A stretch of 64,000 nucleotides of DNA from Candidatus Gottesmanbacteria bacterium RIFCSPHIGHO2_01_FULL_40_15 (GCA_001779115.1 MFJF01000015.1:22491-86490); one strand, 5' to 3'. Shown: positions 1 to 44,535, numbered from the stretch's first letter. The notes: generated by a model from the letters alone, not told the origin. A program made the numbers and translations.

Positions 1-1389
1 GAAGCAATATATATCCGATGGGCGCAGATAGGTTTGAATGACCCGGCTCACCGTTTTATTTCCCTGACCGACGGCAAACAGCCGCTTTTTACCTGGCTAA
101 TGTATCCGTTTCTTAGTATTTTTACTGATCCGCTTTTTGCCGGCCGGTTTGTTTCGGTTCTTTCCTCGATGCTCGCCGTTTCCGGAATTTACTTCCTGGC
201 CAAAGAATTATTTAACCGCAAAACAGCAGTATTTGCCTGTATTTTATATCTGATTTCACCCTTCGCCCTGCTCTATGACAGGCTGGCCCTAATGGACAGC
301 CTACTCTCGGCGCTTTTGGTTTGGTGCTTATATTTTACGGTTATGCTCACCAGATACAGCCGTCTCTATTTCAGTTTTATGCTGGGAATAACCGCCGGAT
401 TTGGACTCCTTACAAAATCATCAGCCGCTTTCGGTCTTTATCTTTTGCCATTCTCGCTTCTTCTTTTTAATTTTAGCGAAAAAAATAACTTAAATAAATT
501 ATTAAAATGGGCAGTTTTTTCTTTTTTGAGTATAATAATTGCTCAAATTATATATAATTTATTGAGATTATCGCCATATTTTTACATTATAGAACAAAAA
601 AATTATTCTTTCATCATGACGTTTGATGAATTTATAAAATCACCTTTGAGGATTTTTCTGCCTAATCTGAACGGTTTGACCGGATGGCTTTTTTCCTATT
701 TAACAATTCCTGTCGCTGTAATTACCATCATAAATCTGATTATTTCCATAATTAAAGTAAAAAGAATTATATTTTTACTATTTCTCTGGTTTATAATTCC
801 CTTTCTTGCTTTAGCGTTTTTGGGTAAAGTAATTTTCCCTCGTTTTATCCTGTTTATGACGATGCCCTTATTGATAATTGCGGCTGATTTTCTAAGCCGG
901 TTTTATTCATTCGCCAGGATTCGCATGAAATACGCTTATATAGTTATTTTGCTGATTTTAGCCCAATCGTTTTATATTTCACTTGTATTGATAGTAAAAC
1001 CGGTAAATGCCGATATACCGCTTAATGACAGAAACCAGTTCTTTGATGATTGGCCGTCGGGATTCGGAGTCAGGCAGGTAGTCGATTATATCGAAAACGA
1101 ATCCCGAAAAGGAAAAGTGGTATTGGGAACGGAGGGTACGTTCGGCCTGAATCCGGCCGCGTATGAAATATATCTCAAGTCCAATGACAACATCATTATA
1201 AAAGGATATTGGCCTGTAAAATCAGTGCCCGCTGAACTGAAAAACTATGCCCGCCTTTATCCTACATATCTTGTCTTTAAAGATACACAGGAATTTCCCG
1301 GTAACTGGCCTTTAAAACTGGTTGCCCGATACCGGCGCGGTTTAAAAAACACTTATTTGTATTTCTATCAGGTGATTCCTGAAGATTAA
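1..1389 (+). CDS. PMT_2/ArnT-like GT-C membrane glycosyltransferase, 5'-truncated (sixth B-family paralog). The frame is open to the window start; the ORF track begins at TTG 34.
   Basis: No stop in frame from nt 1. Polytopic hydrophobic protein whose TM-core and C-terminal region are collinear with the paralogs at 25085, 27551, 29205, 32797 and 34404. The N-terminal DE-loop is presumably upstream. Confidence 0.55.
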   Translation, partial: EAIYIRWAQIGLNDPAHRFISLTDGKQPLFTWLMYPFLSIFTDPLFAGRFVSVLSSMLAVSGIYFLAKELFNRKTAVFACILYLISPFALLYDRLALMDSLLSALLVWCLYFTVMLTRYSRLYFSFMLGITAGFGLLTKSSAAFGLYLLPFSLLLFNFSEKNNLNKLLKWAVFSFLSIIIAQIIYNLLRLSPYFYIIEQKNYSFIMTFDEFIKSPLRIFLPNLNGLTGWLFSYLTIPVAVITIINLIISIIKVKRIIFLLFLWFIIPFLALAFLGKVIFPRFILFMTMPLLIIAADFLSRFYSFARIRMKYAYIVILLILAQSFYISLVLIVKPVNADIPLNDRNQFFDDWPSGFGVRQVVDYIENESRKGKVVLGTEGTFGLNPAAYEIYLKSNDNIIIKGYWPVKSVPAELKNYARLYPTYLVFKDTQEFPGNWPLKLVARYRRGLKNTYLYFYQVIPED

Positions 1390-3038
1390 TGCGAAAATTA
1401 CCAGGTTTATATTTTTTTTTAACTCTGATTTTCCTGCTGATTATTTCTTTAGTTTATTCATGGCCTTTTTTCAAGCCGGGTCTGATTGTAACGGACGATG
1501 GTATTTGGTCGGTTGTGCGTCTTGCGGAAATGGTCAGAGAGTTAAAAGATTTCCAGATTCCTCCGCGCTGGGCCGGATACCTTAACCATGGATACGGTTA
1601 TCCTCTTTTTTCCTTTGCTTATCCCTTGCCTTATTATTTGGGTGCGTTTTTGAAATTTACGGGATTGTCCTATGTTTCTGCCGTAAAATTTTTATTTATC
1701 GGCAGCACGTTCCTTTCAGTGTTTTTCATGTATCTGTTGGGATCGACCTTAACCGGTCCCGGCGGAGGATTAACGGCAGCTCTTTTTTATTTGATAGCTC
1801 CTTACCGGTTAACCGATCTTTATGTCCGGGGTTCTTTAGGAGAATCAATCAGTTTCCTTTTTTTTCCGCTGATTTTTTACCTGACGGTTAAAATATTTAA
1901 AGAAAGTCCCGGTTTTAAGCCTATTTTTCTCAGTCTGTCCCTTTCCGCTTTGATGCTTTGCCATAATGTCATGGCTGTCCTTTTCATCCCTGTTTGGCTT
2001 TTTTTTGTATTTTTTCTTAATTTTTCCCGCTTCGGAAGGAAAGAAAATGATAAAAAGACATCACCGGTCATTAAATTTCTACCGGTGCAGTTTTTAAAGA
2101 TTTTATTTCTGTCACTCTCTTTGGCGGCATTTTTTATTCTTCCGGCTCTGATGGAAAAAAAATTCCTTGTACTGGATAAAATTCAGCTGGCCGCCAAAAG
2201 CCTCAATTTCATTTCACTCATCAATTTAGTCACCCGGCCGCAAAATACGGTCTATCCCTTTTTCAATTTGGGAATTCCGCAACTGACGGTTGCCGGTCTT
2301 TCTGTATTAGCGCTTTTCAGGATGAAAAAGGATCTTGATCACCGGAGCTTTATGATCTCTGTCCTGATAATTTTAGCCGCCCTTATTTTTCTCACCAATA
2401 ATATAAGTTCATTTTTCTGGCAGCTTCCGATTCTCAATTCAATTGATTTTCCCTGGCGGGTTATGGGTTTGGTCATTTTCATGTTGGCTTTATTAACCTC
2501 ATTTATCGGTTCAAACAGGAATTTATTGGCATTTGGTCTCCTTCTTGCCGGTATCGGCTTTTTCCGGAATCTTTCCCTTATTAATCCTGCCGGATACACT
2601 AAACAAAATGATGAATATTACCTGACTAACGATGCCACCACAACATCCAAAGACGAATTTATGCCTATTTGGGTGACTGATCCCCCAGGAAAAAGATTTT
2701 CGGAAAAAGTCTCATTACCGGAAAACGCTCTCATTTCCGATCTCGTCTACAATTCCAAAACAGTAAAATTTAACCTGCTGTCCCGACAGCCGGGTCGCCT
2801 GATAATAAATACAATTTACTTTCCCGGGTGGCAGGCCACTTTAAACGGAAAAAATACCGCAATTATATACAATAATCCCCAGGGACTGATCTCCCTGGAT
2901 TATCCTTCCGGGGCTTCACGGATTGAAGCGTTTTTTAAGGAAACCCCGTTAAGAAAGACAGCCGACGTCATAAGTTTGCTGGCCCTTATTTATATAATTT
3001 TCTCAATTATGAAAAGAGTTTTTAAATATGTCAGGTAA
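1389..3038 (+). CDS. YfhO-like GT-C family polytopic membrane protein (A-family paralog A1)
   Basis: N-terminal periplasmic-loop motif TDDGIW...RLAE...PPRWAGYLNHGYGYPLFSFAYPLPYYLG. More than 10 predicted TM segments. C-terminal soluble domain with YFPGWQATLNGK, as seen at the C-termini of YfhO-family proteins. The TAATG junction overlaps the previous gene. Confidence 0.6.
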   Translation: MRKLPGLYFFLTLIFLLIISLVYSWPFFKPGLIVTDDGIWSVVRLAEMVRELKDFQIPPRWAGYLNHGYGYPLFSFAYPLPYYLGAFLKFTGLSYVSAVKFLFIGSTFLSVFFMYLLGSTLTGPGGGLTAALFYLIAPYRLTDLYVRGSLGESISFLFFPLIFYLTVKIFKESPGFKPIFLSLSLSALMLCHNVMAVLFIPVWLFFVFFLNFSRFGRKENDKKTSPVIKFLPVQFLKILFLSLSLAAFFILPALMEKKFLVLDKIQLAAKSLNFISLINLVTRPQNTVYPFFNLGIPQLTVAGLSVLALFRMKKDLDHRSFMISVLIILAALIFLTNNISSFFWQLPILNSIDFPWRVMGLVIFMLALLTSFIGSNRNLLAFGLLLAGIGFFRNLSLINPAGYTKQNDEYYLTNDATTTSKDEFMPIWVTDPPGKRFSEKVSLPENALISDLVYNSKTVKFNLLSRQPGRLIINTIYFPGWQATLNGKNTAIIYNNPQGLISLDYPSGASRIEAFFKETPLRKTADVISLLALIYIIFSIMKRVFKYVR

Positions 3039-4749
3039 ACCGGTATCCATTCTGATGCTGATTACGGTATTGGTACTATCCTATTTTTCCGTCCGTCCGG
3101 TATTTATTAAAGGTTACTTTCCCGTGCATGACGATACTCAGCCGGCCAGGGTTTTAGTCATGTCGGAGCAGTTAAGAAAAGGCATCTTTCCTGTGAGGTT
3201 GGTTGACCGCCTCGGCTATGGATACGGTTATCCCTTATTTAATTTTTACGCACCGCTCCCGTATTATTTGGGCTCTTTATTTCATCTGGCCGGATTCTCT
3301 CTTATTTTTTCCGTAAAACTGATGTTTGCTTTTGGAGTGATATTGGCGGCAGTATTTATGTATCTTTTGGCGGTTGAAATCGCCGGGTCCTTCTTTGCTG
3401 CCGCAGCTGCCGTCTTTTATTTGTACGCTCCATACCATGCCGTCAATGTCTATGTCAGAGGTGCGGTCGGAGAGTACTATGCTTATGCATTCCTGCCGTT
3501 ATTGGGACTTGGAATATTGCGCGTAATAAAATCATCTGCCGGAAAATCCGACCACCGTATCCGTCCGGTGTTGCCACTGATACTTGGACTGGCCGGAATA
3601 CTGTTAAGTCATAATATTTTTGGTCTGGTTACTCTATATCTTTTGATCATTTTGATTCTGTATGGACTGTATCGCCAATTAAGAAAAAAAGGAGGCTGTC
3701 ATCTGATGCAAATTCTCATGAATATGGCTTTAGGAATCGGACTGTCCGCTTTTTTTATCCTGCCTGCTTTTTTGGAAAGCCACTTTACCCGTGTTGCCGG
3801 TCTTTCGGCGGGATCAAACAGTTACGATCTGCATTTTATCTCCTTGTTTCAGTTATGGGATTCTCCCTGGGGTTTCGGCGGTTCTGTTCCGGGCTTAAAC
3901 GACGGCATGTCTTTTAAGATCGGAAAACTGCACCTTTTAATAGCGGTTTTAGGGCTCATCCGTTTTATCTTTCTTGGTCCAAAAAACCCAAAATCAGCTG
4001 CTAAAAAATTTCTGGTTCCGGCTTCACTTTTTCTTTTTCTCCTTTCTGTCTTTTTTATGCTTCCCGTATCCTCTTTTTTGTATCGTTTGTTGCCGTATAT
4101 GAACTTTATCCAGTATCCGTGGCGTTTTTTGAATATCTCTCTTTTTGCCCTCAGCCTGGGTATAGCTCCGCTGTTTTATAATATGAAAAATAAATTTCAG
4201 GCAATATCTGCCTTTTTAATCATCTTCTCTATACAAGGCGTAAACCTGAAATATTTTAATCCGAGAACAGTTCATCCGTTTGATGAAGCCGATTATAAAA
4301 ATCCTGTTAATCTGAAGTTTACAATTTCCAGAATTTCTGACGAGTATTTGCCTCCCGGTATAAACATTCCCCAAACTGCCCGTGATCTTCCCGGTTCATC
4401 TCTGCCGGCAACTCCGGAAATGCCCGTTTATGAATTGACCGGTACGACCGTTTTTAAAAAATTCATGGTTGATAAAAAGGAAACGGGTCCGGTTGTCACC
4501 AAAATGGCATATTTCCCCGGTTGGCAGGCAAAAATTGACTCAAGTGCGGTAAGGGTTGTAAATAGAGAGGGTTTGATTGCTCTTCATGTTCCCGCCGGAA
4601 AGCATATTCTTGAATTGGAATTCAAAAATACGCCGGTAAGATTTACCGGTAACGCGATTTCCATTTCAAGTATTGTTCTGTTACTATATTTACTGTTGGT
4701 GCTGCCGATTAAATATATTTTATGCAAAGAGCCAGATCCGTCGAGGTAG
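3028..4749 (+). CDS. YfhO-like GT-C family polytopic membrane protein (A-family paralog A2)
   Basis: HDDTQP...RLGYGYGYPLFNFYAPLPYYLG motif, many TM segments, C-terminal YFPGWQAKIDSS domain. Paralogous to 1389..3038 and 39192..40847. Confidence 0.6.
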   Translation: MSGKPVSILMLITVLVLSYFSVRPVFIKGYFPVHDDTQPARVLVMSEQLRKGIFPVRLVDRLGYGYGYPLFNFYAPLPYYLGSLFHLAGFSLIFSVKLMFAFGVILAAVFMYLLAVEIAGSFFAAAAAVFYLYAPYHAVNVYVRGAVGEYYAYAFLPLLGLGILRVIKSSAGKSDHRIRPVLPLILGLAGILLSHNIFGLVTLYLLIILILYGLYRQLRKKGGCHLMQILMNMALGIGLSAFFILPAFLESHFTRVAGLSAGSNSYDLHFISLFQLWDSPWGFGGSVPGLNDGMSFKIGKLHLLIAVLGLIRFIFLGPKNPKSAAKKFLVPASLFLFLLSVFFMLPVSSFLYRLLPYMNFIQYPWRFLNISLFALSLGIAPLFYNMKNKFQAISAFLIIFSIQGVNLKYFNPRTVHPFDEADYKNPVNLKFTISRISDEYLPPGINIPQTARDLPGSSLPATPEMPVYELTGTTVFKKFMVDKKETGPVVTKMAYFPGWQAKIDSSAVRVVNREGLIALHVPAGKHILELEFKNTPVRFTGNAISISSIVLLLYLLLVLPIKYILCKEPDPSR

Positions 4750-5459
4750 TTATTCCTATCTATAATGAACAGGAGGAGCTTGCTGACAGTATTATCAAGC
4801 TCCGTTCGTTTTTAAAAAAGAATTTGAAAGACTTCAATTGGCATATTACCATTGCCGATAACGCTTCAACTGACGAAAGCCTTAATATTGCCAGAAAACT
4901 AAAATCCCGTTATACCGGTGTCGGTTTTATTCATCTGGATGAAAAAGGCCGGGGCCGGGCTGTTAAAAAAGCCTGGCAAACAAGCAGGGCTGATTTCTTA
5001 TCTTATATGGACGTAGATCTGTCTTCAGACCTCAGGTATTTCCGGACATTAATTACTGCACTGGTTGACGGATATGATATATCGATAGGCAACCGGCTTA
5101 TGAAAGGATCAATCGTTAAAAAACGCCCTTTGAAAAGGGAAGTTCTTTCAAGGGGATATAATATTCTGATAAAATTACTGTTTTTGGTTCATTTCAGTGA
5201 TGCACAATGCGGTTTTAAAGCTGTCAACCGGAAAGTAGCCGACCGCTTATTGCCGAATATTAAGGATAATGCCTGGTTTTTTGACAGTGAGCTCCTGATT
5301 ACCGGTGAAAAGGTCGGCTATAAAATATTCCAGGTACCGGTTTCCTGGACCGATAATCCCGGATCAACCGTCCGGGTTTTAAAAACAGTTTCGGGTGATT
5401 TGGCCGGTCTTTTACGGTTATTCCTGGATCGGCCTTGGCGCAAAATAAATAAAGTTTAA
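4722..5459 (+). CDS. GT2 polyprenyl-phosphate sugar synthase (Dpm1/GtrB/ArnC-like)
   Basis: VVIPIYNEQEEL...ADNASTDES...YMDVDLSSDL (GT-A DxD region). Size about 245 aa. Overlaps the end of A2. Confidence 0.7.
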   Translation: MQRARSVEVVIPIYNEQEELADSIIKLRSFLKKNLKDFNWHITIADNASTDESLNIARKLKSRYTGVGFIHLDEKGRGRAVKKAWQTSRADFLSYMDVDLSSDLRYFRTLITALVDGYDISIGNRLMKGSIVKKRPLKREVLSRGYNILIKLLFLVHFSDAQCGFKAVNRKVADRLLPNIKDNAWFFDSELLITGEKVGYKIFQVPVSWTDNPGSTVRVLKTVSGDLAGLLRLFLDRPWRKINKV

Positions 5460-5461
5460 AC

Positions 5462-6481
5462 ATGAAAAATATTTTCATTACGGGAGGAGCCGGTTTCATC
5501 GGGTCAAACCTGGCTGCCCATTTTATTAAAAAAGGAAAAAAAGTAACTGTTTTTGATAACCTTTCAAGGCAGGGAGGAAAAGCCAATTTGGACTGGCTGT
5601 CTTCTTTGGGTCCTTTCAAATTCACAAGAGGAGATATCAGGAATAAATCTGAACTTGAAAAGGCGGTTAGGGGGGCTGATGCAATACTCCATCTGGCTGG
5701 TCAGGTTGCCGTAACCACATCAGTTGACGATCCTGCCACAGACTTTGACATTAATGCTTTGGGTACCTTTAATCTCCTTGAAGCTGTCAGAACTTCCGGA
5801 AAAAAAATTCCAGTCATATTTTCATCAACTAATAAAGTTTACGGCGGAATGGAGAATATCAAAGTCATAGAAAAAAATGGCCAGTATATATATAAAGACT
5901 ATAAGTTCGGAATCGCCGAAACTAAAAACCTTGATTTCCATTCACCCTACGGCTGTTCTAAGGGGGCGGCCGATCAGTATATGCGGGATTATTACCGCAT
6001 CTATGATATTCCGACAGTTGTTTTCCGTCAATCCTGCATTTACGGTCCGCGTCAATTCGGTATTGAAGACCAGGGTTGGGTAGCCTGGTTTATTATCGCT
6101 GCTTTTTCCGGAAAAAAAATAACTGTTTACGGCGATGGTAAACAGGTCAGGGATGTGCTTTTTATTGATGATCTGGTTGGGCTTTTTGATATTACACTCG
6201 CAAACATAAATAAATCCGCCGGTAAAATATATAACGTCGGAGGCGGATTTACTAATATACTTTCAGTTTGGACAAAGTTCGGACCTATTTTGGAGGATCT
6301 TTTCGGGCATAAAATAAGAGTGAGTTTCAGCCGGTGGCGGCCCGGTGATCAGAAAGTTTATATTAGTGATATTAGACAGGTTAAAAAAGAGCTCGGTTGG
6401 CAACCCAAAGTCGGAGTTAAAGAGGGTATATCAAAATTATTTAAGTGGGTGGGCAGTAATCAGAATCTGTTCAAATCTTGA
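5462..6481 (+). CDS. CDP-paratose/tyvelose 2-epimerase-like SDR (NAD-dependent sugar-nucleotide epimerase)
   Basis: TGGAGFIGSNL Rossmann motif. VFDNLSRQGGKANLDWL, STNKVYGG and HSPYGCSKGAADQYMRDY (YxxxK) closely resemble the RfbE/Tyv family. Confidence 0.7.
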   Translation: MKNIFITGGAGFIGSNLAAHFIKKGKKVTVFDNLSRQGGKANLDWLSSLGPFKFTRGDIRNKSELEKAVRGADAILHLAGQVAVTTSVDDPATDFDINALGTFNLLEAVRTSGKKIPVIFSSTNKVYGGMENIKVIEKNGQYIYKDYKFGIAETKNLDFHSPYGCSKGAADQYMRDYYRIYDIPTVVFRQSCIYGPRQFGIEDQGWVAWFIIAAFSGKKITVYGDGKQVRDVLFIDDLVGLFDITLANINKSAGKIYNVGGGFTNILSVWTKFGPILEDLFGHKIRVSFSRWRPGDQKVYISDIRQVKKELGWQPKVGVKEGISKLFKWVGSNQNLFKS

Positions 6482-6485
6482 AGAT

Positions 6486-7610
6486 ATGCCAAAATACAAC
6501 AACATTTTAGTCACCGGCGGAGCCGGTTTTATCGGTTCGCATTTGGTCGACGCTTTAATTACTAAAGGTTTTAAAGTCCGGGTTCTTGATAATCTCGATA
6601 AACAGATACACCCCTCTGGCAAGCTTCCTGCATACTTTAACAGGAAAGCTCAATTCATTAAAGGCGATGTAGTTAAAACTGAAGATTGGCGTAAAGCGTT
6701 AAACAAAATTGATTGTGTTTTTCATTTTGCTTCAGCTGTCGGCGTCGGCCAGAGTATGTATGAGATTGAAAAATACGTGCGCGTCAACTGTCTTGGGACG
6801 GCGCTTTTTCTTGACATGTTGGCCAATAAGAGTCACGGCGTTAGAAAAATTATTGTGGCCGCTTCCATGAGTTCTTACGGTGAAGGAAGCTACATTTGCA
6901 GTAAATGCGGTATTGTCAGACCGGATCTTCGTCCCCAATCTCAGCTGAAAAAAAGAGACTGGCAGGTATATTGTCCTGAATGTGGCATTTGGGTAACGCC
7001 TGTTCCGACAAAAGAAGAAGCCAAGCAGAATTCCAATTCTATTTATGCGATTACCAAAAAAAACCAGGAAGACATGATTCTGACAACCGGTAAAACTTAC
7101 GGTATTCCCTCTGTTGCCCTCCGTTTTTTTAATGTTTACGGTCCCAGACAATCACTTTCCAATCCCTATAACGGTGTGGCTGCCATATTCCTCAGCCGCA
7201 TCAAAAATAATAAACCGCCTGTAATAAATGAAGACGGTTTTCAGACCAGGGATTTTATCCATATTACTGATGTTGTTTCAGCCTGTATTGCCGCCATGGA
7301 AAAATCCTCAGGGGATTACGAAGTATTTAATGTAGGCAGCGGTAAACCTGTTACTATATTGGAAGTAGCCGGGGTTATAAGCAGATTATTAAAAAGTTCT
7401 ATTAAACCTGACATAACGGGTAAAGCAAGAAAACTTGATGTCCGTCATTGCTATGCCGATCTGAAAAAAATTAAAAAACTGCTCGGTTGGTCTCCCAAAA
7501 TTAAACTCTTGGAAGGATTTGCCGGACTGATTGAATGGGGTAAATATGAGAAAGCGCGGGATAAGGTGGATTATGCTCTTGGTGAATTGGAAAAAAGAGG
7601 ATTAAGATGA
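6486..7610 (+). CDS. NAD-dependent epimerase/dehydratase (SDR) with a Zn-ribbon insertion
   Basis: ILVTGGAGFIGSHLVD, and a catalytic Ser region (ASMSSYGEG) followed by a CSKCG...CPECG insertion before YAITK. Start taken at ATG 6486; the ORF track's TTG 6345 would overlap the upstream gene by 137 nt. Confidence 0.7.
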   Translation: MPKYNNILVTGGAGFIGSHLVDALITKGFKVRVLDNLDKQIHPSGKLPAYFNRKAQFIKGDVVKTEDWRKALNKIDCVFHFASAVGVGQSMYEIEKYVRVNCLGTALFLDMLANKSHGVRKIIVAASMSSYGEGSYICSKCGIVRPDLRPQSQLKKRDWQVYCPECGIWVTPVPTKEEAKQNSNSIYAITKKNQEDMILTTGKTYGIPSVALRFFNVYGPRQSLSNPYNGVAAIFLSRIKNNKPPVINEDGFQTRDFIHITDVVSACIAAMEKSSGDYEVFNVGSGKPVTILEVAGVISRLLKSSIKPDITGKARKLDVRHCYADLKKIKKLLGWSPKIKLLEGFAGLIEWGKYEKARDKVDYALGELEKRGLR

Positions 7611-8350
7611 CAGTTTCATTCATAATTCCCTTCCATAATGAAGGAAAAAACTGCCAACCGATGGTAGAACGTGTAGCGGCTTTTGCTGAAAAAAATGATA
7701 TTGATTATGAAATAATTCCGGTGGATGACAGAAGTAATGATAAAACACGGCAAATCCTTAAGAATTTATGCGCGAAAAACAGGCGAATAAAACCCGTTAT
7801 ACGAAAAGAGGACAGCGTGGAAAAGGGAAATACTATGGGCAGTGCCCTTATGGAAGGAACGGTAAAATCAATCGGCCGTTTTATAATTTGGACTATGGGC
7901 GATATGGCCGACAATACTGCAACTTATAAAGATATACTGGATAAACTTAACGGCAATTATGATATGGTTTTTGGTTCCCGTTATATGCCCGGCGGTTCAC
8001 GGGGTAATCTTGATCCTTTGAAAGCGACTTTAAGCTCAACAGGCACTTTCCTGGCCCGGATTCTGTTTGGAATTCCCGTTCATGATATAACTAATGCCTT
8101 CCGGGGTTTTAAAAAAGAAGTATTTCAGAAAGTAAGCCTGGAAGAGACCGGATTCGGCATTTCACCTGAATTTGCCATTAAAGCCCATATGGCCGGATTT
8201 AAGCTCGGGGAAGTTCCGACAACATACGCCAACAGGGTTGAAGGAATCTCCAATTTTAAACTATATAAAATGACCAGGGGATACCTTTTATTATACTTCA
8301 AACTCCTTCTAAAATACCGGCTTCACAAAAAAAAGCTGGTCCTTCACTGA
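7607..8350 (+). CDS. GT2 polyprenyl-phosphate sugar synthase (Dpm1/GtrB-like)
   Basis: SFIIPFHNEG...IPVDDRSNDKT and a C-terminal RVEGISNFK motif typical of Dpm1/GtrB enzymes. ATGA overlap with the upstream gene. Confidence 0.7.
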   Translation: MTVSFIIPFHNEGKNCQPMVERVAAFAEKNDIDYEIIPVDDRSNDKTRQILKNLCAKNRRIKPVIRKEDSVEKGNTMGSALMEGTVKSIGRFIIWTMGDMADNTATYKDILDKLNGNYDMVFGSRYMPGGSRGNLDPLKATLSSTGTFLARILFGIPVHDITNAFRGFKKEVFQKVSLEETGFGISPEFAIKAHMAGFKLGEVPTTYANRVEGISNFKLYKMTRGYLLLYFKLLLKYRLHKKKLVLH

Positions 8351-8359
8351 GATATTTGA

Positions 8360-9526
8360 TTATCTCAACCAATTTTCAGTTAACCGTTTAAACCTGTTTT
8401 CGCTTATGGCTTCCCTTATTTCATTCATGAGTGAGCCGAAAAAAAACAGGTTGTGTATAGTAGCCAGCCTGTATGAAAGAAGCTCCCGGCTCCTGAATAA
8501 ATGGTTTAAGTAAGAGCGGGAAAAATTACTGCAGGTATAGCAGGAGCAATTTTTGACAGGGGGCCGCTTGTCACCGGTATAAATACTTTTGATAATGTCA
8601 TATCTGAATTTATTTTTAAGCCCTGCATTTTTGTCAAAAATCCATCCCATCCTTCCCAGTCTGGTCGGTGTTACACAATCCAAGCTGTCAATTCCTTTGC
8701 CGACAGATATGAAAATATCTTCAATTTCCCCGATCCCCAGAAAGTGGATAGGTTTTTCAGTCGGAAGCAAATAAGGCAGCGTCCAGTCCAAAACGGCAAA
8801 AACTTTCTCCCGCGGTTCACGGCTGTTGGCCACGCTGCCGATGGCCAATCCGTCAAAGGACAGGTGGCTCATAAATTCAGCTGATTCTTGCCGCAAATCC
8901 TTAAAAACTGATCCCTGAACTATCCCGTATAGAAATTGTTCAGTTACTCTTTTTTTTATAAGTAAATCAAGGCAAATACGGGCCCATCGGTGAGTCCTTT
9001 CCATGGCGGTAATTGCCTTTTCCCGAATAATTGGATAGAAAGTACATTCATCAAAGGCCATTAAAATATCCGCGCCCAACTCGAGTTGCGCCCGAATTGA
9101 TTCAACCGGACCCAAAAATTGCCTGCTTCCGTCCCATGCTGATTTGAATGTTATACCCGAATCGGATATTTTCACCAGCGTTTTTTCAATCCTGTTTTGC
9201 CGCGGACCGTGTTCCGACAGGGAAAAGGCCTGGAATCCTCCGGAGTCCGTCATGACAGGTCCGCTCCAGTTCATAAATTTATGAAGCCCCCCGGATTTTT
9301 TAACCGTTGCCACACCCGGGCGGAAAAGCATATGGTAAGTATTGACAAAAAAAACATCCAGATTTGCTGCCCGTATTTCCTCAGGGGTTACCGATTTTAC
9401 AACGGCGCCTGTTCCGACCGGAACAAATGCCGGTGTTCTTATAACGCCGTGTGAAGTATGTATTTCTCCCGCTCGGGCCGACGATTTATTATCCCTGAAT
9501 TTGATATTAAACTTTAAATTGGACAT
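8360..9526 (-). CDS. tgt: queuine tRNA-ribosyltransferase
   Basis: TPAFVPVGT, VNTYHMLFRPG, DSGGFQ and LAFDEC motifs. C-terminal zinc site CxCxxC...H (CSCYTCSNF...HL). Confidence 0.9.
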   Translation of the reverse strand: MSNLKFNIKFRDNKSSARAGEIHTSHGVIRTPAFVPVGTGAVVKSVTPEEIRAANLDVFFVNTYHMLFRPGVATVKKSGGLHKFMNWSGPVMTDSGGFQAFSLSEHGPRQNRIEKTLVKISDSGITFKSAWDGSRQFLGPVESIRAQLELGADILMAFDECTFYPIIREKAITAMERTHRWARICLDLLIKKRVTEQFLYGIVQGSVFKDLRQESAEFMSHLSFDGLAIGSVANSREPREKVFAVLDWTLPYLLPTEKPIHFLGIGEIEDIFISVGKGIDSLDCVTPTRLGRMGWIFDKNAGLKNKFRYDIIKSIYTGDKRPPVKNCSCYTCSNFSRSYLNHLFRSRELLSYRLATIHNLFFFGSLMNEIREAISENRFKRLTENWLR

Positions 9527-9586
9527 ACTTCTTATATTCGGTAATTTCTTTTATAATGCCGGTAATTAATCCGGCAAATTCCTTTA

Positions 9587-9988
9587 ATGATAATCAGATC
9601 AATCAACAAAATCAAAGAACAGCCGGCCGGCCATGAAAATAAGAAAAATCCCGGCTCCCTGAAAAAAATTATCTTTGACCGGAAAAATTTGCCGGGTCTT
9701 TATAAACCCCAAATGATTAATTGGGCCCGCATTCCCTCCGGAAGAAAATTTAGGCCGCATTACCATCAGGATATGACAGAAATCTTCATTATCCTAAAAG
9801 GCCGTGCCGGAATAACCGTAGACGGCAAATTTGCCCGCTTAAAAAAAGGTGATGCGGTTTTAATTGAGGAAATGAAAGAGCATGAAATGGAAAACACCGG
9901 AAAGCAGGATGTTGAATATCTCGTTATCGGTTTATCCCGCGGTGAAGGAGGGAAAACCGTCATCTCCGGGCAAAAAAATAATGAATAA
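9587..9988 (+). CDS. cupin-domain protein. Start uncertain; an internal ATG near 9713 is also possible.
   Basis: Two-His cupin motifs (HYHQDMTEIFIILKG...GDAVLIEE..EHEMEN), about 110-130 aa. Confidence 0.5.
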   Translation: MIIRSINKIKEQPAGHENKKNPGSLKKIIFDRKNLPGLYKPQMINWARIPSGRKFRPHYHQDMTEIFIILKGRAGITVDGKFARLKKGDAVLIEEMKEHEMENTGKQDVEYLVIGLSRGEGGKTVISGQKNNE

Positions 9989-11384
9989 AAAAAGCTTGGT
10001 CTTCTTTATCTTTCTGACATTTTCGGCTCTGACAGCTTTTTATTTATTCCGTAAGTCTTTAAACGGGTTCTTTTTCCAGGATGACTGGTTTTCACTTAAA
10101 ATCAGTTCGGTTAAAAACATTAGGGATGCCTTAAATATATTTGTTCCAAGGTCTGACGTGATTTATTACCGTCCTTTGGGAATGCAGTTGCCCTTTTATC
10201 TCTTAAGCTTGGGCGGTAAGATTAACCCCATCCCGTTTAAGGTACTTATAGCCGTGGTGCATTTTGCCAATATTTGTCTTCTAAGTCTTCTGATTCTGAA
10301 GTTAACCGGAAAAAAATTCAGTTCACTTTTGGTTTCATTTTTCTATTCCACTTCCCTGATTCATTTCACTATTTTTTGGTGGAGCGCCACTTTATCATTT
10401 ATTTTAACAACTTTCTTTTTGCTTATAGCCCTCATTTTATATTTAAAATATTTAACGGAAAAAAAATTTTGGTCTTATTTCTCAACCCTGTTATTTTTTA
10501 CCCTGGCTCTCTTAACCAATGAGATGGCGTTGATTTTTCCGGTGCTAACGCTGTTGCTGCTATGGCTGATTAAAAAAGGAAAGTTCTCATATTTGGGGGT
10601 TGTTCCCTTTATAATTTTACCGGTAATACTTTTTTCAGCCCGATTTCTGTATTTTCCGCCGCCGATATCCGGGGATTACCGGCTGGTTATCGACAGGGGA
10701 CTGATTATTAATCTGAGGGATTACTTCCTCTGGAGTTTTAATTGGCCAGAAGAAATGAAAGGACAATTCGTTAAATTTTTTGCAGTCAATCCTCTTTTTA
10801 TCAGCGGTTTTAAACCTTATTTTTTGGCATTTGTTGTAACACTTTTTATTAATTTGTCTTTCCTTTTTTTAATTCCCTTTCTTTATCTTCTGATTTCCGG
10901 GAATTTAATACCCTTCCGGATGATTATATTCGGAGCTGGTTTATTTCTGGCGGGTTTATTGCCGGTTATACTTTTCGGCCGGCACACTTTTTCCTATTAT
11001 CTGACTCTTTCCCTGATCGGACTGCTTCTTATAACCTCCTCTCTGATTGAAGAGTTTTTCGCAAGTTTCGAAGGCAAATACAGACTTTTGGTTTTCTTTT
11101 ATTTGCTGGTAATTCTAACCAATTGGCTCTATTCGTCATTTATGGGCTTCGAGTTCAACATGAAAGTCCATTGGGCTCCCCGCCGATCGGATATTTCGCA
11201 AAAACTTATTTCTCATGCCGGAGGATTAAAACCGGCTGCCGGGCAAACAGTAATTATTTCGGTAAATAATAATCCTGAAGTGAAACTGGCTTTAAACAAT
11301 CAGGACGCGTTCCAAGTTTTGTTCGGCAGAAACGATATCATTACTGTTTATTCAGATAAAATCGAGGCCGATTTCAGATTATGA
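9983..11384 (+). CDS. polytopic integral membrane protein of unknown function, possibly GT-C-like
   Basis: 467 aa and at least 11 hydrophobic segments. ATGAATAAA start overlaps the cupin stop. I recognised no family. The ORF track start of 9882 is rejected because of the overlap. Confidence 0.45.
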
Positions 11385-12529
11385 AGAAAACTATTGTAGT
11401 ACTAGCAATTGTTATTACTTCGCTGCATTTAATAAATTTCTGGCATATAAATCTGGAAAGGTTAAAAAGACCCTTTGATCCGGATTACTTTTCCGGACTT
11501 TATTCAACTTCCCAATATGTTTTGGGAGAAAAATCAAAAGGAGGTATCGGTGATGACGGACTTTATGCTTTTGCCGGCTATTATTACTTTTTCCAACAGG
11601 GAGATGTCAGTGCGGTAAACTTTGAACACCCGCCTTTGGGGAAATATCTAATTGGACTTTCAATTTTTCTTTTTAACAACGAAATTATAATCGGAATTAT
11701 ATATTTTATTTTTCTTCTTATCACGGTTTATAAATTAAGCGGTTTACTGATAAGTGATAAATATCTTTCCCTTCTTCCCCCGATTCTGATTTCATGGGAT
11801 CCGCTCTTTCTCGATCACACAATAAGATCCCAGCTTGACCTTCCCTTCTCGTTGTTTTTCGTCACGGCTGTTTATTTTTTTCTTCTGATTTTTAAAAATA
11901 ATACCGGTATATATCTTTCCCAATTATTTTGGGCCTTGGCGTTTAGCGTCCGTTTTTTCCCGTTTCTTATTATTTTGGAAATTTATATGGCAATTATTAC
12001 ATTTTTTGTCGGCCGCAGGTTTTTACTCCGGTTTCTTCTGTCGTCACTTTTAACTCCGGTTATATACCTTGTAACCCATACCGTTTTTTTTATTTACCAT
12101 CCGTCACTGGTGGAATTTCTCAGGCATAAAAAATGGATGCTCGCCTGGTTTACCGGAACTCCGGTTAAATTCGGCAATATCTTAAGAAACATTTTTACCG
12201 GAAGGCTTCTTGATACGCTTGATAATTCGGTTGTCAATAACCTGTGGACTCCGATGCAGCCGGTAATTTTAGTTTTGGCACTGCTTTGTCCGTGTCAATT
12301 TCATCGGCGGAATAATTCAATTAGCGTAAAATTTTCCCCGTATTTTGTTCTATTAGGTTTTGTAATCTTATATTTCCTTTATACCGTAATTTTAACCGGC
12401 GGCCAGGCGAAATTTATCATGCCTGTATTTCCGCTGATGGCGGTTCTGGCGGTAAAGAATGCGGCAGATCTCTATAGTATAATACTGCCATGGATCAGGG
12501 CGCGCTTGAGGCATTCAAAAACAAAGTAG
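11381..12529 (+). CDS. short PMT-like (GT39-type) GT-C mannosyltransferase homologue
   Basis: The loop after TM1 reads DDGLYAFAGYYYFFQQGDVSAVNFEHPPLGKYLIGL, which resembles the PMT loop-1 DE...HPPLGKLL signature. Many TM segments, 382 aa, no MIR domain. Confidence 0.55.
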   Translation: MKKTIVVLAIVITSLHLINFWHINLERLKRPFDPDYFSGLYSTSQYVLGEKSKGGIGDDGLYAFAGYYYFFQQGDVSAVNFEHPPLGKYLIGLSIFLFNNEIIIGIIYFIFLLITVYKLSGLLISDKYLSLLPPILISWDPLFLDHTIRSQLDLPFSLFFVTAVYFFLLIFKNNTGIYLSQLFWALAFSVRFFPFLIILEIYMAIITFFVGRRFLLRFLLSSLLTPVIYLVTHTVFFIYHPSLVEFLRHKKWMLAWFTGTPVKFGNILRNIFTGRLLDTLDNSVVNNLWTPMQPVILVLALLCPCQFHRRNNSISVKFSPYFVLLGFVILYFLYTVILTGGQAKFIMPVFPLMAVLAVKNAADLYSIILPWIRARLRHSKTK

Positions 12530-13935
12530 TCGGCGGCGTTTTGGCCTTAACTACACGGACTTTCATCCTCCAGATAATATCATTTACTGCTACTTTTATT
12601 CTGACCATATTGCTGTCTCCTGAAATATTCGGGATTTTTTTTGTTGTTTCAGCCGTAATTTCCTTTCTTACCTATTTTTCCGATATCGGACTGGCAGCGG
12701 CTCTTATACAGAAAAAGGATGAGCCTGTCAGAAGCGAACTGGTGTCCGTTTTTACTTTACAGCAGGTGATAGTAACCCTAGTAGTCGCAGTCTCTTTTTT
12801 AAATGTTTCGCTAATTTCCCGTTTTTATAAATTATCCGGGGATGGTACTTTTCTTTTCCAGGCTCTTTTAGTTTCTTTTTTTCTTTCTTCTTTAAAGACC
12901 ATACCCTCAATTCTTCTGGAACGTAAACTGGATTTTTCCCTTTTGGTAGTCCCTCAGATTCTTGAAAATCTGGCTTTTTACCTAACGGCCGTAATTCTGG
13001 CGCTTTTGAATTTGGGTATTGCCAGTTTCGCCTGGGCAGCTTTGATCAGAGGCATTGTCGGTTTGATTGCCATTTATTCAGTTTCTCCATGGGTTCCGGG
13101 TCTTGGTTTTTCCTATTCCTCGGTGAGACACCTGATTACTTTTGGAATTCCTTTCCAGGCTAATTCTCTTCTGGCACTCGTTAAGGATGATCTTCTTACA
13201 TTATATTTGGGCAAAATACTGCCTTTTTCCTTTATCGGCTATCTTGGCTGGGCAAAAAAATGGGCTGAAATTCCTCTCAGGCTTATTATGGACAGTGCCG
13301 TCAGGGTCACTTTCCCGGCCTTTTCAAGAATCCAAAAAGAAACCGCCTTATTGAAAAAAGCCATTGACAAAACCGTATTTTTTCTGGCGCTTTTGATTCT
13401 GCCGGTATCGGTTCTTTTGATTGTCTATATTAAACCGGCCATCGGAATAATTCCTAAATATCAGAAATGGGAGCCGGCTTTACCGGCTTTTTATCTTTTT
13501 TCACTTTCTGCTGTCCTGGCGTCCTTTTCCAGTCCGATTGTTAACGCGCTTAATGCTTTGGGGAAAATTAGAAAAACCTTAGGTCTGATGTTACTCTGGA
13601 CTGTAATGACCTGGATGCTGGTACCGGTTCTGACAAATCTTATCGGCTATAACGGTTGGCCGATTTCAGCCCTTCTTATTTCCTCCACTCTATTCCTGCC
13701 TGTGTCAATGTTAAAAAAGTATGTCAGTTTTGATTTTTGGAAAAATCTGAAAACCCCCCTGGTCTTAACTTTGGTAATGTTCCTGTTTTCGTTTATGACA
13801 ATGTCTTTTGTATATAATATTTATACTCTGGTTGCTTTAATTTCTGCCTCCCTCCTTTTATACTTGCTTTTATGTTTTTATTTTCTTAAAAAAGACATCT
13901 TGCCTTTTCTTCCGGAGTTTCTAAAACGTGTTTGA
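12490..13935 (+). CDS. Wzx-like polysaccharide/oligosaccharide flippase (MOP/PST family)
   Basis: 481 aa with about 12-14 TM segments. The N-terminus (KNKVVGGVLALTTRTFILQIISFTATFILTILLSPEIFGIFFVVSAV) is typical of PST-family flippases. Confidence 0.7.
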   Translation: MDQGALEAFKNKVVGGVLALTTRTFILQIISFTATFILTILLSPEIFGIFFVVSAVISFLTYFSDIGLAAALIQKKDEPVRSELVSVFTLQQVIVTLVVAVSFLNVSLISRFYKLSGDGTFLFQALLVSFFLSSLKTIPSILLERKLDFSLLVVPQILENLAFYLTAVILALLNLGIASFAWAALIRGIVGLIAIYSVSPWVPGLGFSYSSVRHLITFGIPFQANSLLALVKDDLLTLYLGKILPFSFIGYLGWAKKWAEIPLRLIMDSAVRVTFPAFSRIQKETALLKKAIDKTVFFLALLILPVSVLLIVYIKPAIGIIPKYQKWEPALPAFYLFSLSAVLASFSSPIVNALNALGKIRKTLGLMLLWTVMTWMLVPVLTNLIGYNGWPISALLISSTLFLPVSMLKKYVSFDFWKNLKTPLVLTLVMFLFSFMTMSFVYNIYTLVALISASLLLYLLLCFYFLKKDILPFLPEFLKRV

Positions 13936-15673
13936 TTTTAGTAAAACAGCCATAAACCGTGCTTTTTCTTTTCCGGCAACACTACTGATGCTGTTTTTGT
14001 GTTTGGGTATTTTCAGTTCATCCATGCCAAAGGCAGTGGCATCGCCCCGGTATATGCCATCTGCTTCTTATGTAAACATTGTAGTACCGTTAAGAAGCCG
14101 GGAATATTGGAAGGATTTCGGAAATGTTATTCCTCTGTTTGAATTCCTGAAAGAGGAAAAATTGCCCACAACTGTTCTTATCCAGTACTCCAATCTCCGT
14201 GATCCGCAGGTCCGAGATTATTTAAAAAGTCTTCCTGAAAATTTTGAATTGGGTTTGTTTTTGGAAGTAGATCAGGTTCTGGCAGATGATTCATTTGCTT
14301 CATATTATTTCGGCATGGATGACCGTTCCCACGCTAATCAGATATTCTTGTCAGGCTATAAAGTAAGTGAAAGGAAAAGAATGATTGATTCTGTTTTTAA
14401 CCGGTTTCGGGAAGTATTCGGATATTTCCCCGGATCTGCCGGAGCCTGGTATGTGGACGCTTTATCCCAAAATTACCTTAAGGATAAATACGGAGTTTCA
14501 GCGCTACTTGATGTTGCCGACCAGTTCCGGACGGATACTTACGGTCTTTGGGGTAAACCATGGGGAACTCCTTTTTTCCCGTCAAAAATAAATCCCCTGG
14601 TACCCTCAGCCGGTAAAAGTGATAATTCACAAATAGTTAAAATCCAGTGGGCAGCACGAGATCCTGTCAGGGGCTATGGCCTCAATGTCTTTGATTCAAC
14701 TTACAGCGTCCAGGCTAATGATTATATTAAAGGGCACCGGTTGGATACCGGTTATTTTACCCATTTAGCTGCCGCTTATCTTTTTTCAAAAAATTATGTT
14801 AACCAGTTAACCCTGGGACTTGAAGCAGGCCAGGAAGGGGCTTCATTTCTGGATGAATTCAGGCTCCAGATTGAAGCTATCCGGCAATTAAACAGTGTTA
14901 ACAGGATAACCTTTGTAACCATGAAGGAATTTGCCGGCATTTTCCGCCGGGCTTATTCAGTGCCTAAATGGAGTTGGGCTGTAGAATCTTCCGATTATTT
15001 TAACCGCCAAACTAAAGCTTACTGGATAAATTTCCCTTCCTATAGGGTTTTAATACTTTTTGAAAATAACGGTTTGATCCTAAAAGATCTCAGGGTTTAT
15101 GATAATGCCCGGTTTTGGGCTGATTTTTTCGATTCCGACCGAAATCGCGATTTAAAAAGAATTCTTCCTGCCTGTATTGACAGCCTTAATATGCACAATG
15201 AAATGCTTCTTGCTGCCGGAGTCGACAGTCCCGAATTGGTACGGATTGATAATTCAAATACATTCTATATTCAGTTTAGCACTGATAAAAAATCCGGACC
15301 GGAAAAATTGGTTTTTTCAAAAGACGGCATTTTTTCCGGTAATGAAAATATCTTCGACTCAGGCCGTTTGCTTGTTTCCGATAATTTTCTGACGGAATTT
15401 TTTATGGATTTGATGCACGTTTATCAGCTTAAAAAAAACCGATTTTATGGGAAAAATATCCGTTTATCCAAAATAAACGGTAACTTTTATTTCGGCTTGG
15501 AAATATCTCCCGGAAAATTATTGGCGTTGACAAGTTCTTATCCATTCGGAGGTATTTATGATTTCCCTTTTCAGATTCTTTCCAAATTTCATAGGCTTAA
15601 TATTATTGACAATCTTCAGCCGTATTTTCAAAGTTTTATTAATCCGCCCGTTAATTGTAAAATTAAACTGTGA
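13928..15673 (+). CDS. hypothetical exported or membrane-anchored protein, possibly carbohydrate-active
   Basis: N-terminal hydrophobic signal or anchor followed by a soluble domain of about 540 aa. I recognised no catalytic motif. Confidence 0.4.
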   Translation: MFDFSKTAINRAFSFPATLLMLFLCLGIFSSSMPKAVASPRYMPSASYVNIVVPLRSREYWKDFGNVIPLFEFLKEEKLPTTVLIQYSNLRDPQVRDYLKSLPENFELGLFLEVDQVLADDSFASYYFGMDDRSHANQIFLSGYKVSERKRMIDSVFNRFREVFGYFPGSAGAWYVDALSQNYLKDKYGVSALLDVADQFRTDTYGLWGKPWGTPFFPSKINPLVPSAGKSDNSQIVKIQWAARDPVRGYGLNVFDSTYSVQANDYIKGHRLDTGYFTHLAAAYLFSKNYVNQLTLGLEAGQEGASFLDEFRLQIEAIRQLNSVNRITFVTMKEFAGIFRRAYSVPKWSWAVESSDYFNRQTKAYWINFPSYRVLILFENNGLILKDLRVYDNARFWADFFDSDRNRDLKRILPACIDSLNMHNEMLLAAGVDSPELVRIDNSNTFYIQFSTDKKSGPEKLVFSKDGIFSGNENIFDSGRLLVSDNFLTEFFMDLMHVYQLKKNRFYGKNIRLSKINGNFYFGLEISPGKLLALTSSYPFGGIYDFPFQILSKFHRLNIIDNLQPYFQSFINPPVNCKIKL

Positions 15674-22638: not shown

Positions 22639-22671
22639 GGCTTGAGAAATTATATCTTCCTGCCTGAGTTT

Positions 22672-26758: not shown

Positions 26759-26765
26759 TAATTTT

Positions 26766-29200: not shown

Positions 29201-29204
29201 AAAA

Positions 29205-35999: not shown

Positions 36000-36024
36000 A
36001 ATAAAGCATGCTAAAATACCGGAT

Positions 36025-43829: not shown

Positions 43830-43850
43830 AATTATTTCATTAGAAAAATA

Positions 43851-44535
43851 TATGGATTTATTGATCGGTATTCCGGCATTCAACGAGGAAACAATGATCG
43901 GTAAAGTATTAAAATCACTGCCGAAAAGAATACCCGGTATTGACCGCATTGATATATTGGTTGTTGATGACGGTTCATCCGACAGAACTGCTGCGGTGGC
44001 AAAAAATTCAGGCGCTTTAGTCTTAAGGCATATTATTAACCGCGGTCTTGGTGGCGCCCTGAAAACAATATTTGCATATGCCGGTAAATACCGGTATGAT
44101 CTCCTGGTGACAATTGATGCGGACGGACAGCACCATCCGGCTGATATAGTGAAAATCCTCCGGCCGGTAATTGATAACGGTAAAGACGTGGTTATCGGTA
44201 CAAGATGGAAAAATTCCTTAAAGAAAAAATTTATTCTCCGTTATCTGATAAATCAGCTGGCCAATTTTTATACTTTTTTACTCTACGGGATAGAAACCGG
44301 TGATTCGCAATCCGGTTTCCGTTCTTTTTCAGGAAAAGCGGTCAAAAAAATTAATTTGAGTTCGGACGGAATGGAAGTATCCAGTGAATTTTTCAGGGAA
44401 ATTTACCGACATGGTCTTATCTATGATGAAGTGCCGGTTAAGCTTATTTATACCGACTATTCCCAGGGTAAGGGTCAGCGTCTGTCAAACGCGCCCAATG
44501 TTTTTTTCAGGCAGTTTTTAAGACTGTTAAGGTAA
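43851..44535 (+). CDS. GT2 polyprenyl-phosphate sugar synthase (Dpm1-like)
   Basis: LIGIPAFNEETMIGKVL...ILVVDDGSSDRT...TIDADGQH. ATG 43851 is preferred over the ORF-track start at 43771. Confidence 0.7.

Follow-up and report, generated by a model that had tools for sequence, protein, structure and literature searches.

What do three related genes for membrane proteins, two of them arranged in tandem, contribute to the glycosylation island of Candidatus Gottesmanbacteria bacterium RIFCSPHIGHO2_01_FULL_40_15? The question is raised by a stretch of 64,000 nucleotides (nt) of this genome (GCA_001779115.1 MFJF01000015.1:22491-86490), here referred to as the window. The ultra-small Patescibacteria have tiny genomes, and their envelope glycans probably mediate attachment to host cells; to our knowledge, these glycans are essentially unknown. 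A small Patescibacteria genome here spends about 60 kb on glycosylation, and the window holds more than 12 GT-C-like genes for membrane proteins (PMT_2 types, a YfhO, a PIG-V-like gene and the three genes in question, in the following A1, A2 and A3). On the evidence presented below, we consider it rather likely that A1, A2 and A3 encode outward-facing glycosyltransferases of the GT-C(A) class which use lipid-phosphate sugars and form a family between PF10131 and YfhO, with A1 and A2 acting as non-redundant partners.

Fold, conserved residues and relatives of the A proteins

A1 (1389..3038, 549 amino acids (aa), the first gene of the pair), A2 (3028..4749, 573 aa, the second, delimited by its open reading frame (ORF), the junction sequence and its clade) and A3 (39192..40847, 551 aa, another paralog, which has an orthologous group to itself and a conserved gene context) were found on the plus strand as originally predicted. 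Their products are identical to the GenBank 'hypothetical proteins' A3D05_04500, A3D05_04505 and A3D05_04655 of a Candidatus Gottesmanbacteria metagenome-assembled genome (MAG; Microgenomates, Patescibacteria). The three proteins align end to end with 28-31% pairwise identity, and BLASTP gave E-values of 1e-49 (A1/A2), 1e-63 (A1/A3) and, in an all-against-all run, 1e-50 (A2/A3). Since these full-length alignments are significant, the motifs common to the three proteins reflect homology and not chance.

Most of the motifs named in the original prediction were recovered. The acidic N-terminal loop (TDDGIW, HDDTQP and HDGPHQ) is present in all three copies, and one Asp, Asp37 in A1 numbering, is invariant in the alignment. 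The GYGYPLF block has the invariant core L65-x2-G68-x-G70-Y-P-L-F74-x-F76...P81; in A1 the block from L65 to Y83 (1581..1637, + strand) reads LNHGYGYPLFSFAYPLPYY and consists of invariant or near-invariant columns. The C-terminal pattern Y(F/Y)PGWQ..NGK was recovered in part: YxPGWQ occurs in all three copies, but NGK is confined to the first and third copies, with IDSS in its place in copy 2. Likewise, the C-terminus had been described as soluble; it forms a beta-sandwich but is not simply soluble, since a terminal transmembrane (TM) helix follows. In A1 the sandwich has seven strands (residues 447-516; 2727..2936, + strand) and contains YFPGWQ, and the helix (residues 520-548; 2946..3032, + strand) is predicted from the structure model and the K/R-rich C-tail to anchor the sandwich and to lead the C-terminus back to the cytoplasm. 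The sandwich of A2, placed by alignment to A1, comprises approximately residues 465-532 (4420..4623, + strand; YFPGWQ at 495-500), and that of A3 approximately residues 452-520 (40545..40751, + strand).

Conservation and topology were evaluated in 142 orthologs (71 A1 and 71 A2 sequences). A1 and A2 have the identical residue, with a conservation of at least 90%, in thirty-six columns, including D37, R44, R60, Y71, K100, R147, E152, H192, N193 and E256, and most columns of the GYGYPLF block reach at least 90% in both clades. The Asp37 column is 100% conserved in both sets and the residue is present in A3 too, while R44, R60, GYP.F, K100, R147, E152, H192-N193 and E256 are conserved to at least 96% in both clades; the equivalents retained in A2 are D35, R41, R57, GYP.F, K97, R144, E149, H195-N196 and E250. 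In A1 and A2, short loops rich in K/R and poor in D/E alternate regularly along the sequence (N-terminus, 172-176, 217-227, 312-317, 376-377 and C-tail). According to the positive-inside rule, the predicted outer parts are the first outer loop EL1 (residues 26-76), the segment 138-152, H192/N193, the loop 247-295, the segment 337-354 and the sandwich. EL1 (1464..1616, + strand), which was delimited by conservation, the positive-inside rule and the alignment to YfhO, contains Asp37 (1497..1499), R44 and R60, and the GYGYPLF block begins within it. Every strongly conserved polar residue is predicted on the outer face, and this placement fits the expectation for the active site of a GT-C enzyme.

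An AlphaFold2 model of A1 was computed from the family alignment with a mean predicted local distance difference test (pLDDT) of 89.2 and a predicted TM-score (pTM) of 0.91; the loop of lowest confidence, residues 72-75 (pLDDT < 50), lies inside the motif block. All 19 Foldseek matches at E ≤ 0.001 are GT-C enzymes, with TM-scores of about 0.4-0.46. Judged from this model, the fold belongs to class A of the GT-C enzymes, none of the solved structures being a close relative: both a superposable multi-TM fold and a conserved acidic residue in the first extracytoplasmic loop, which follows TM1, were found. A search of PDB sequences with the family profile yielded nothing beyond noise (mannose-6-phosphate receptor and PI-PLC, with E-values above 0.6).

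For the relation to YfhO, the bona fide YfhO-family GT-C gene of the window (19299..21590, + strand; Pfam YfhO 59.7 bits, also hhalign) served as comparison gene; its C-terminal module comprises residues 692-759 (21372..21575). The original prediction had placed a matching element of this protein at YHPSWKVKINGK, and the match holds by BLASTP (E 4e-8) and by the YfhO Pfam model, which matches A3 at positions 762-820 of 835. A profile built from homologs of ORF 19299 was then compared with the A family by hhalign. The membrane domains align over 332-334 columns with probabilities of 98.6% and 97.3%, and the C-terminal modules over 68 columns (A1 447-515, YfhO 692-759) with 95.4% for full-length profiles and 98.2% for isolated domains; the matches span YfhO 7-400 and 692-759, with none in between. 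In YfhO, the counterpart of A1 Asp37 is Asp46, a residue that does not vary in the YfhO alignment; the block QIPPRW..LNHGYGYPLF of the A family aligns with G.LP.WNPYSFSGTPLL, and the A1 motif block with SFSGTPLLANFQ. As controls, the A family aligned with two PMT_2-type families of the window over just 107-136 columns, the YfhO profile reached 5-9% against PMT_2 families, and the C-terminal module less than 1%. A comparison of other multi-TM ORFs of the window, which lack Pfam matches, with the profiles of A, YfhO and PMT_2 by single-sequence hhalign told little in most cases but serves as a negative control: the probabilities stayed below 7% for A and YfhO. The predicted YfhO-relatedness is thus borne out at profile level; by these comparisons, the A family is specifically related to YfhO but does not belong to it. 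Membership in YfhO itself was rejected: the A proteins are about 200 residues shorter, lack the region corresponding to YfhO residues ~400 to ~690, and lie below the Pfam cutoff.

Placement in the domain databases was assessed with 44 aligned family members. PF10131 (PTPS_related), which belongs to the GT-C clan CL0111 and whose function is unknown (PMC7801869), was matched by 39 of them (best E 1.9e-17). Eight matched YfhO at E up to 0.01; five of these were looked at singly, and their match lies in the C-terminal ~80 positions. In ten orthologs inspected, the PF10131 match is restricted to profile positions ~4-310 of 621, corresponding to protein residues ~72-390; the cutoff was exceeded by eight of them (29-53 bits) and narrowly missed by two (24.5 and 25.7), so that the family straddles it. 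For YfhO, the match comprises no more than positions ~740-829 of 835, which correspond to residues ~435-520 of the protein. When only the C-terminal fragments of A1, A2 and A3 were searched, YfhO was the sole Pfam match (positions 746-824 of 835; 15.5, 16.8 and 32.1 bits; 769-824 in A2 and 762-821 in A3). No Pfam model extends over TM1 and the first outer loop, where both the invariant Asp and the GYGYPLF block lie. At the level of Pfam models the A family is a composite of the first half of PF10131 and the last ~80 positions of YfhO. PMT and PMT_2 models (PF02366, PF13231) gave weak matches in four of the 44 members (best 3.4e-5) and none in A1, A2 or A3 even at E up to 1; an NCBIfam scan of the three proteins gave nothing meaningful. 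These results suggest that the YfhO C-terminal sandwich deserves a domain model of its own and that extending the PF10131 model over TM1 and EL1 would be worthwhile.

An exhaustive profile search recovered representatives of 6,764 clusters (50% identity) with a threshold of E ≤ 1e-30, and 22,956 representatives when the threshold was E ≤ 1e-3; homologs are abundant, and the named ones are nearly all from Patescibacteria. The family was originally suspected to be not well described. This holds for its function, for which the literature offers no description, but not for its name: UniProt names of A proteins derive from the PF10131 domain, without functional description, and NCBI labels some orthologs as PMT/GT39-like protein O-mannosyltransferase. 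The family is thus very large, has no characterised member or solved structure, and is covered by Pfam partially and marginally.

The A1-A2 pair

The tandem genes had been presented as copies of one family; instead of mere duplicates, they are two distinct, anciently fixed orthologous groups. A motif-pattern scan with one genome per species yielded 128 relatives, and 80 loci were kept. These have a G+C content of 28-44% and, where specifically named, come from Gottesman-, Levy- and Roizmanbacteria, Microgenomates and two genomes labelled Saccharimonadales. Dozens of records that bear this Patescibacteria-type operon at low G+C content (28-44%) are titled 'uncultured Gammaproteobacteria bacterium' (L003, L005, L006 and others); the titles seem to be blanket names used in the bulk submission of MAGs and not to reflect real taxonomy.

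At least two copies are present in 75 of the 80 loci, the remaining five being on short or truncated contigs, and in all 70 loci with two adjacent copies the A1-type gene precedes the A2-type gene. Their junctions are mostly overlaps of 4-13 nt or gaps of less than 10 nt; in the window, A1 and A2 overlap by 11 nt. The start of A1 in turn overlaps the stop of the preceding PMT_2-type GT-C gene as TAATG. The latter (1..1389, + strand; Pfam PMT_2 64 bits), a partner in most loci, is cut by the window edge, its frame being open from base 1. The conserved module has the order GT2 (Dpm1-like) - PMT_2 - A1 - A2 - GT2 (Dpm1-like), where GT2 denotes glycosyltransferase family 2. It is continued by two genes of the short-chain dehydrogenase/reductase (SDR) type and a third GT2 in most loci labelled Gottesmanbacteria; loci of the Levybacteria type have a Wzx-type flippase and GT2s at this place.

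In a neighbour-joining tree, A1 and A2 form clean clades and A3 lies outside both. Orthologs of each of the three occur across Gottesman-, Levy- and Roizmanbacteria, those of A3 with 45-53% identity. A recent tandem duplication of A1 and A2 was rejected on account of the fixed order in 70 of 70 loci and the phylogeny. Moreover, the exhaustive profile search uncovered double-length proteins, among them a natural fusion (P0361, 1116 aa), the A1-type half of which scores 434 bits (380 with the A2 model) and the A2-type half 569 (versus 293); it is present on two contigs in a PMT_2 ... Wzx, GT2 context from an organism of 58% G+C. Such a fusion is topologically possible because the C-terminus of A1 and the N-terminus of A2 are both predicted to be cytoplasmic. 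Giant predicted proteins with several full or partial A-type units and up to six matched stretches were also noticed (P0366, 3329 aa; P0383, 1670 aa), which may be real multi-GT-C fusions or artefacts of gene calling.

Each clade has motifs of its own, TNDATTTSxDE before the sandwich in A1 and SPWGxGGSxPGxxDGMSFxxGK in a long outer loop in A2, and these argue for different substrates or roles. Neither protein looks like a pseudoenzyme, because both clades retain the EL1 Asp and the other conserved residues; a dead partner within the pair was rejected since both keep the Asp. A1 and A2 represent an ancient, near-universal partnership, translationally coupled and occasionally fused, and not redundant duplicates.

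Proposed donor supply and mechanism, and alternatives

A soluble Dpm1-like GT2, a candidate polyprenyl-phosphate-sugar synthase, is encoded right after A2 (4722..5459, + strand; Pfam GT2, PDB and NCBIfam matches). The second Dpm1-like GT2 of the module follows at 7607..8350 (+ strand; Pfam, NCBIfam and locus comparison), and another stands right before A3 (38410..39183, + strand; Pfam, PDB, NCBIfam). Together with the GT2s starting at 43771 and 47838, these form a single paralog group. The flanking GT2s have their best PDB matches in Dol-P-Man synthase of Pyrococcus furiosus (5mlz; E 1e-17 for 4722..5459) and ArnC, and the Dpm1-like GT2s have their best NCBIfam matches in AglJ, dolichyl-phosphate hexose transferase, PgfS, ArnC and PpgS; the other GT2 class of the window has none of these NCBIfam matches. 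Across the 80 loci, a GT2 of the Dpm1 type is the commonest neighbour of an A gene after another A gene (61 adjacencies). In sequence, the flanking GT2s thus resemble polyprenyl-phosphate-sugar synthases.

Genes for the tailoring of nucleotide sugars are found alongside. A putative SDR nucleotide-sugar 4,6-dehydratase/epimerase (5462..6481, + strand; Pfam, NCBIfam) follows the GT2 as in other Gottesmanbacteria loci, and a second SDR epimerase (6345..7610, + strand) matches the Pfam Epimerase domain in two stretches. In the latter the domain is split by an insertion of about 45 residues with two CxxC pairs (CSKCG...CPECG), resembling a zinc ribbon; its GTG start overlaps the preceding gene by 137 nt, and the true start is therefore probably the ATG near residue 48. 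Upstream of A3 lie a further SDR epimerase (35983..36951, + strand; conserved in L081 and L082) and a flavoenzyme of 491 aa resembling UDP-galactopyranose mutase (UGM; 36957..38432, + strand; PDB UGM matches, conserved context). The UGM-like protein aligns over its full length with eukaryote-type UGMs (PDB 4dsg) and over its N-terminal part with the bacterial enzyme 1i8t (E 3e-19). The order SDR - UGM-like - GT2 - A3 - GT2 - GT4 is kept in two other genomes, and a UGM-like gene stands directly upstream of A1-A2 in two Levybacteria loci (L036, L067). This context hints, speculatively, at a furanose donor or at furanose sugars in the envelope. From the UGM-like and 4,6-dehydratase-like genes, galactofuranose or 6-deoxy-hexose would be expected among the decorations.

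In the proposed mechanism, an adjacent GT2 of the Dpm1/AglJ/PgfS type would take a sugar from its nucleotide-activated form and attach it to polyprenyl phosphate on the inner side of the membrane, the nucleotide sugar being tailored by the neighbouring SDR epimerases/dehydratases and, in the A3 branch, possibly also by the UGM-like enzyme. The lipid-linked sugar would then be flipped across the membrane and transferred by the GT-C protein to an acceptor of the cell envelope on the outer face, with the putative catalytic EL1 Asp (Asp37 in A1) acting together with R44, R60, Y71, K100, R147, E152, H192/N193 and E256. The outer beta-sandwich, held by the terminal TM helix, has a probable role in positioning the acceptor; the lectin-like character suggested for this module in the original prediction is hypothetical. 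A1 and A2 may work as a heterodimer, as Pmt1-Pmt2 and EmbA-EmbB do, or make consecutive additions on one acceptor, as PgfM1 and PgfM2; in either case the pair probably adds sugars to a cell-surface molecule. A bolder form of this proposal would make A1-A2 an obligate heterodimer whose two active sites use different polyprenyl-phosphate sugars, one of them possibly a furanose produced through the UGM-like enzyme, in building or decorating a major surface glycoconjugate of Microgenomates/Patescibacteria. We offer it tentatively and regard it as doubtful; if true, it would define a new GT-C family at the level of CAZy with a YfhO-type acceptor-binding sandwich.

Several findings weigh against transfer from lipid-phosphate sugars by a YfhO-related family. 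The Dpm1-like GT2s all score far below the equivalog cutoffs, and we infer their sugar and lipid acceptor. No GtrA-type flippase was found in the window, but only a Wzx-type flippase (Polysacc_synt_3; 12490..13935, + strand; identified by Pfam and by gene order in loci L013-L080) and a DUF2304 protein. PF10131 scores of A1 (13.1 bits) and A2 (14.7 bits) are below the cutoff of 26.4, and A3 has no match. The check with the YfhO model (PF09586), suggested in the original prediction, came out negative for full-length proteins, as A1 and A2 gave no match and A3 reached 28.0 bits against a cutoff of 28.5; the C-terminal fragments matched the model. No biochemical data on any family member or on PF10131 were found in the literature; no paper on the function of PF10131 or on GT-C enzymes in Patescibacteria was found either. 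Finally, Foldseek ranks oligosaccharyltransferases (OSTs) highest among the structural matches, and these enzymes use lipid-diphosphate oligosaccharides and not lipid-monophosphate sugars as donors.

Beside the question of flipping, it was observed that in Levybacteria loci the homolog of the Wzx-type gene lies two genes past A2 (A1 - A2 - GT2 - flippase). The small DUF2304 membrane protein (44537..44893, 118 aa, 69 bits) is encoded right after the PpgS-like GT2 at 43771..44535, which has the strongest match of the window to a lipid-sugar synthase (NCBIfam PpgS, 139.8 bits). The DUF2304 protein could be a partner or a flippase candidate.

The structural matches bring up the alternative that the A proteins are OST- or ligase-like and transfer a Wzx-flipped polyprenyl-diphosphate oligosaccharide en bloc to a protein or polymer, following the logic of PglB, AglB, PglL or WaaL. 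We judge this unlikely: the STT3 model (PF02516) is matched by one of the 44 members (E 2e-4), the WWD motif is absent from the three window sequences and from the family consensus, and the neighbours of the A genes point to lipid-monophosphate donors. A division of labour in which one of A1 and A2 is catalytic and the other a scaffold or acceptor-recognition subunit would agree with the fixed pairing, the translational coupling and the natural fusion, with the weaker conservation of the YxPGW sandwich motif in A2 than in A1, and with a 2021 review in which some small GT-C enzymes were proposed to need a partner for acceptor binding and two-protein systems were considered speculatively (PMC8035078). 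It appears clearly improbable, since a pseudoenzyme should tend to lose its key residues, whereas the EL1 Asp is 100% and the other key residues are at least 96% conserved in both clades. That the three genes are recent redundant duplicates of a generic PMT/GT39-like protein O-mannosyltransferase, as the NCBI label might suggest, is highly improbable given their identity of 28-31%, the separate clades with orthologs in Gottesman-, Levy- and Roizmanbacteria, the clade-specific conserved loops, the short hhalign overlap with PMT_2 families and the missing PMT/PMT_2 matches. A role other than glycosyl transfer on a GT-C scaffold, e.g., as a PIG-U-like subunit or a lipid/polymer translocase, has an equally slight probability. 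Each of these alternatives is less well supported than the transfer of lipid-phosphate sugars by the A proteins.

The surrounding island and known systems

The glycosylation island is almost wholly co-directional across the 64,000 nt, with a G+C content of about 40%, and a tRNA scan of the window found none. Apart from the A genes, it comprises the PMT_2-type GT-C gene at 1..1389 and five tandem paralogs of this type at 25085..35999, one YfhO and one PIG-V-like gene, the five Dpm1-like GT2 genes, other GT2/GT4 genes, seven genes of the SDR epimerase/dehydratase type, the UGM-like gene, the Wzx-type flippase gene and aminotransferase genes. In positions 1..10000, promoter-like sites occur at chance level; terminator-like sites are about twofold enriched (26 versus a shuffle mean of 12.1), with none at gene junctions.

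The five tandem PMT_2-type paralogs have lengths of 557, 549, 541, 536 and 535 aa and mutual identities of 27-38%, and other membrane ORFs are interspersed. One of these, a 273-aa ORF with six TM segments (26733..27554) between the genes at 25085 and 27551, resembles positions 323-437 of the PMT_2-type paralog family in its last 108 residues (hhalign 98%) and, from this sequence match, appears to be a GT-C paralog that was split or truncated. Five large ORFs have no significant Pfam match even at E up to 1, i.e., 9882..11384 (500 aa, 10 predicted TM segments), 11381..12529 (382 aa, 6), 13928..15673 (581 aa, 1), 30830..32800 (656 aa, 12) and 49549..51453 (634 aa, 10); homologs of those at 9882 and 11381 recur close to the A1-A2 module in other genomes. 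The five ORFs may be further unrecognised envelope-glycan enzymes of the polymerase, ligase or GT-C-like kind. The array is broken by a queuine tRNA-ribosyltransferase (TGT) gene on the minus strand (8360..9526), one of few genes in this orientation. Several Gottesmanbacteria loci (L001, L002, L004, L009) likewise have the tgt gene behind the module. Also inside the island are a gene of the transaldolase/FSA family (22642..23877) and one of the glutamine-dependent asparagine-synthase family (54302..56254). Asparagine-synthase-family genes in such clusters often encode amidotransferases for sugar or glycan modification.

Among known systems, YfhO stands closest to the A proteins. In Bacillus subtilis and Staphylococcus aureus, it acts with CsbB and GtcA as the N-acetylglucosamine transferase for lipoteichoic acid, and in Listeria it acts on wall teichoic acid; PgtC2, PgfM1 and PgfM2 of streptococci belong to the YfhO family too. 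The two families share the GT-C membrane domain over ~334 columns, the paired EL1 Asp, an EL1 block of the form P-x-W...G-x-P-L, a beta-sandwich with Y-x-P-x-W at the same C-terminal position, and a gene location beside a GT2 of the lipid-phosphate-sugar-synthase type. They differ in that YfhO proteins have 750-860 aa with a long extracytoplasmic region (roughly residues 500-690 in the YfhO of the window), whereas the A proteins have 549-573 aa and lack this region; in the terminal TM helix after the sandwich of A1, which the YfhO of the window lacks; and in the EL1 signature GYGYPLF.F.YP.PYY and the fixed A1-A2 pair, which belong to the A family. PF10131, in turn, leaves the predicted catalytic TM1/EL1 part outside its model, and the C-terminus of the A proteins matches YfhO and not the second half of PF10131.

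A GT-C transferase within a lipid-sugar pathway is already known as a type of system, as is the protein name derived from PF10131. No earlier account was found in the literature of the relation between the A family and YfhO, including the shared C-terminal sandwich, nor of the probable catalytic loop outside the Pfam models, the A1-A2 partnership and its fusions, or the scale of the family. Taken together, the relation to YfhO, the fixed and sometimes fused gene pair and the adjoining genes for candidate lipid-sugar synthases offer a testable entry to envelope glycosylation in these uncultivated organisms and a candidate heteromeric GT-C enzyme.

AglB, PglB and STT3 contain WWDYG, which the A family lacks, and the small sandwich is unrelated to the periplasmic domain of OSTs. 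Paralogous GT-C subunits that both carry catalytic residues are known from Pmt1-Pmt2 of yeast and EmbA-EmbB of mycobacteria; for A1-A2, the fixed gene pair, the overlap of the genes and the natural fusion point indirectly to such an arrangement. Multi-component systems of a GT-A enzyme, a flippase and a GT-C enzyme provide a precedent (PMC8035078), and the A genes resemble them in adjoining GT2s of the polyprenyl-phosphate glycosyltransferase type (4722 and 38410). In streptococci, GtrB/PgtC2 and PgfS/PgfE/PgfM1/PgfM2 O-glycosylate protein regions rich in Ser/Thr, and the pgfS-pgfM1-pgfE-pgfM2 operon encodes two YfhO-type GT-Cs with distinct roles together with an epimerase (PMC12041528). The likeness of the locus described here to the pgf operon lies in this combination of two GT-C genes and an epimerase gene.

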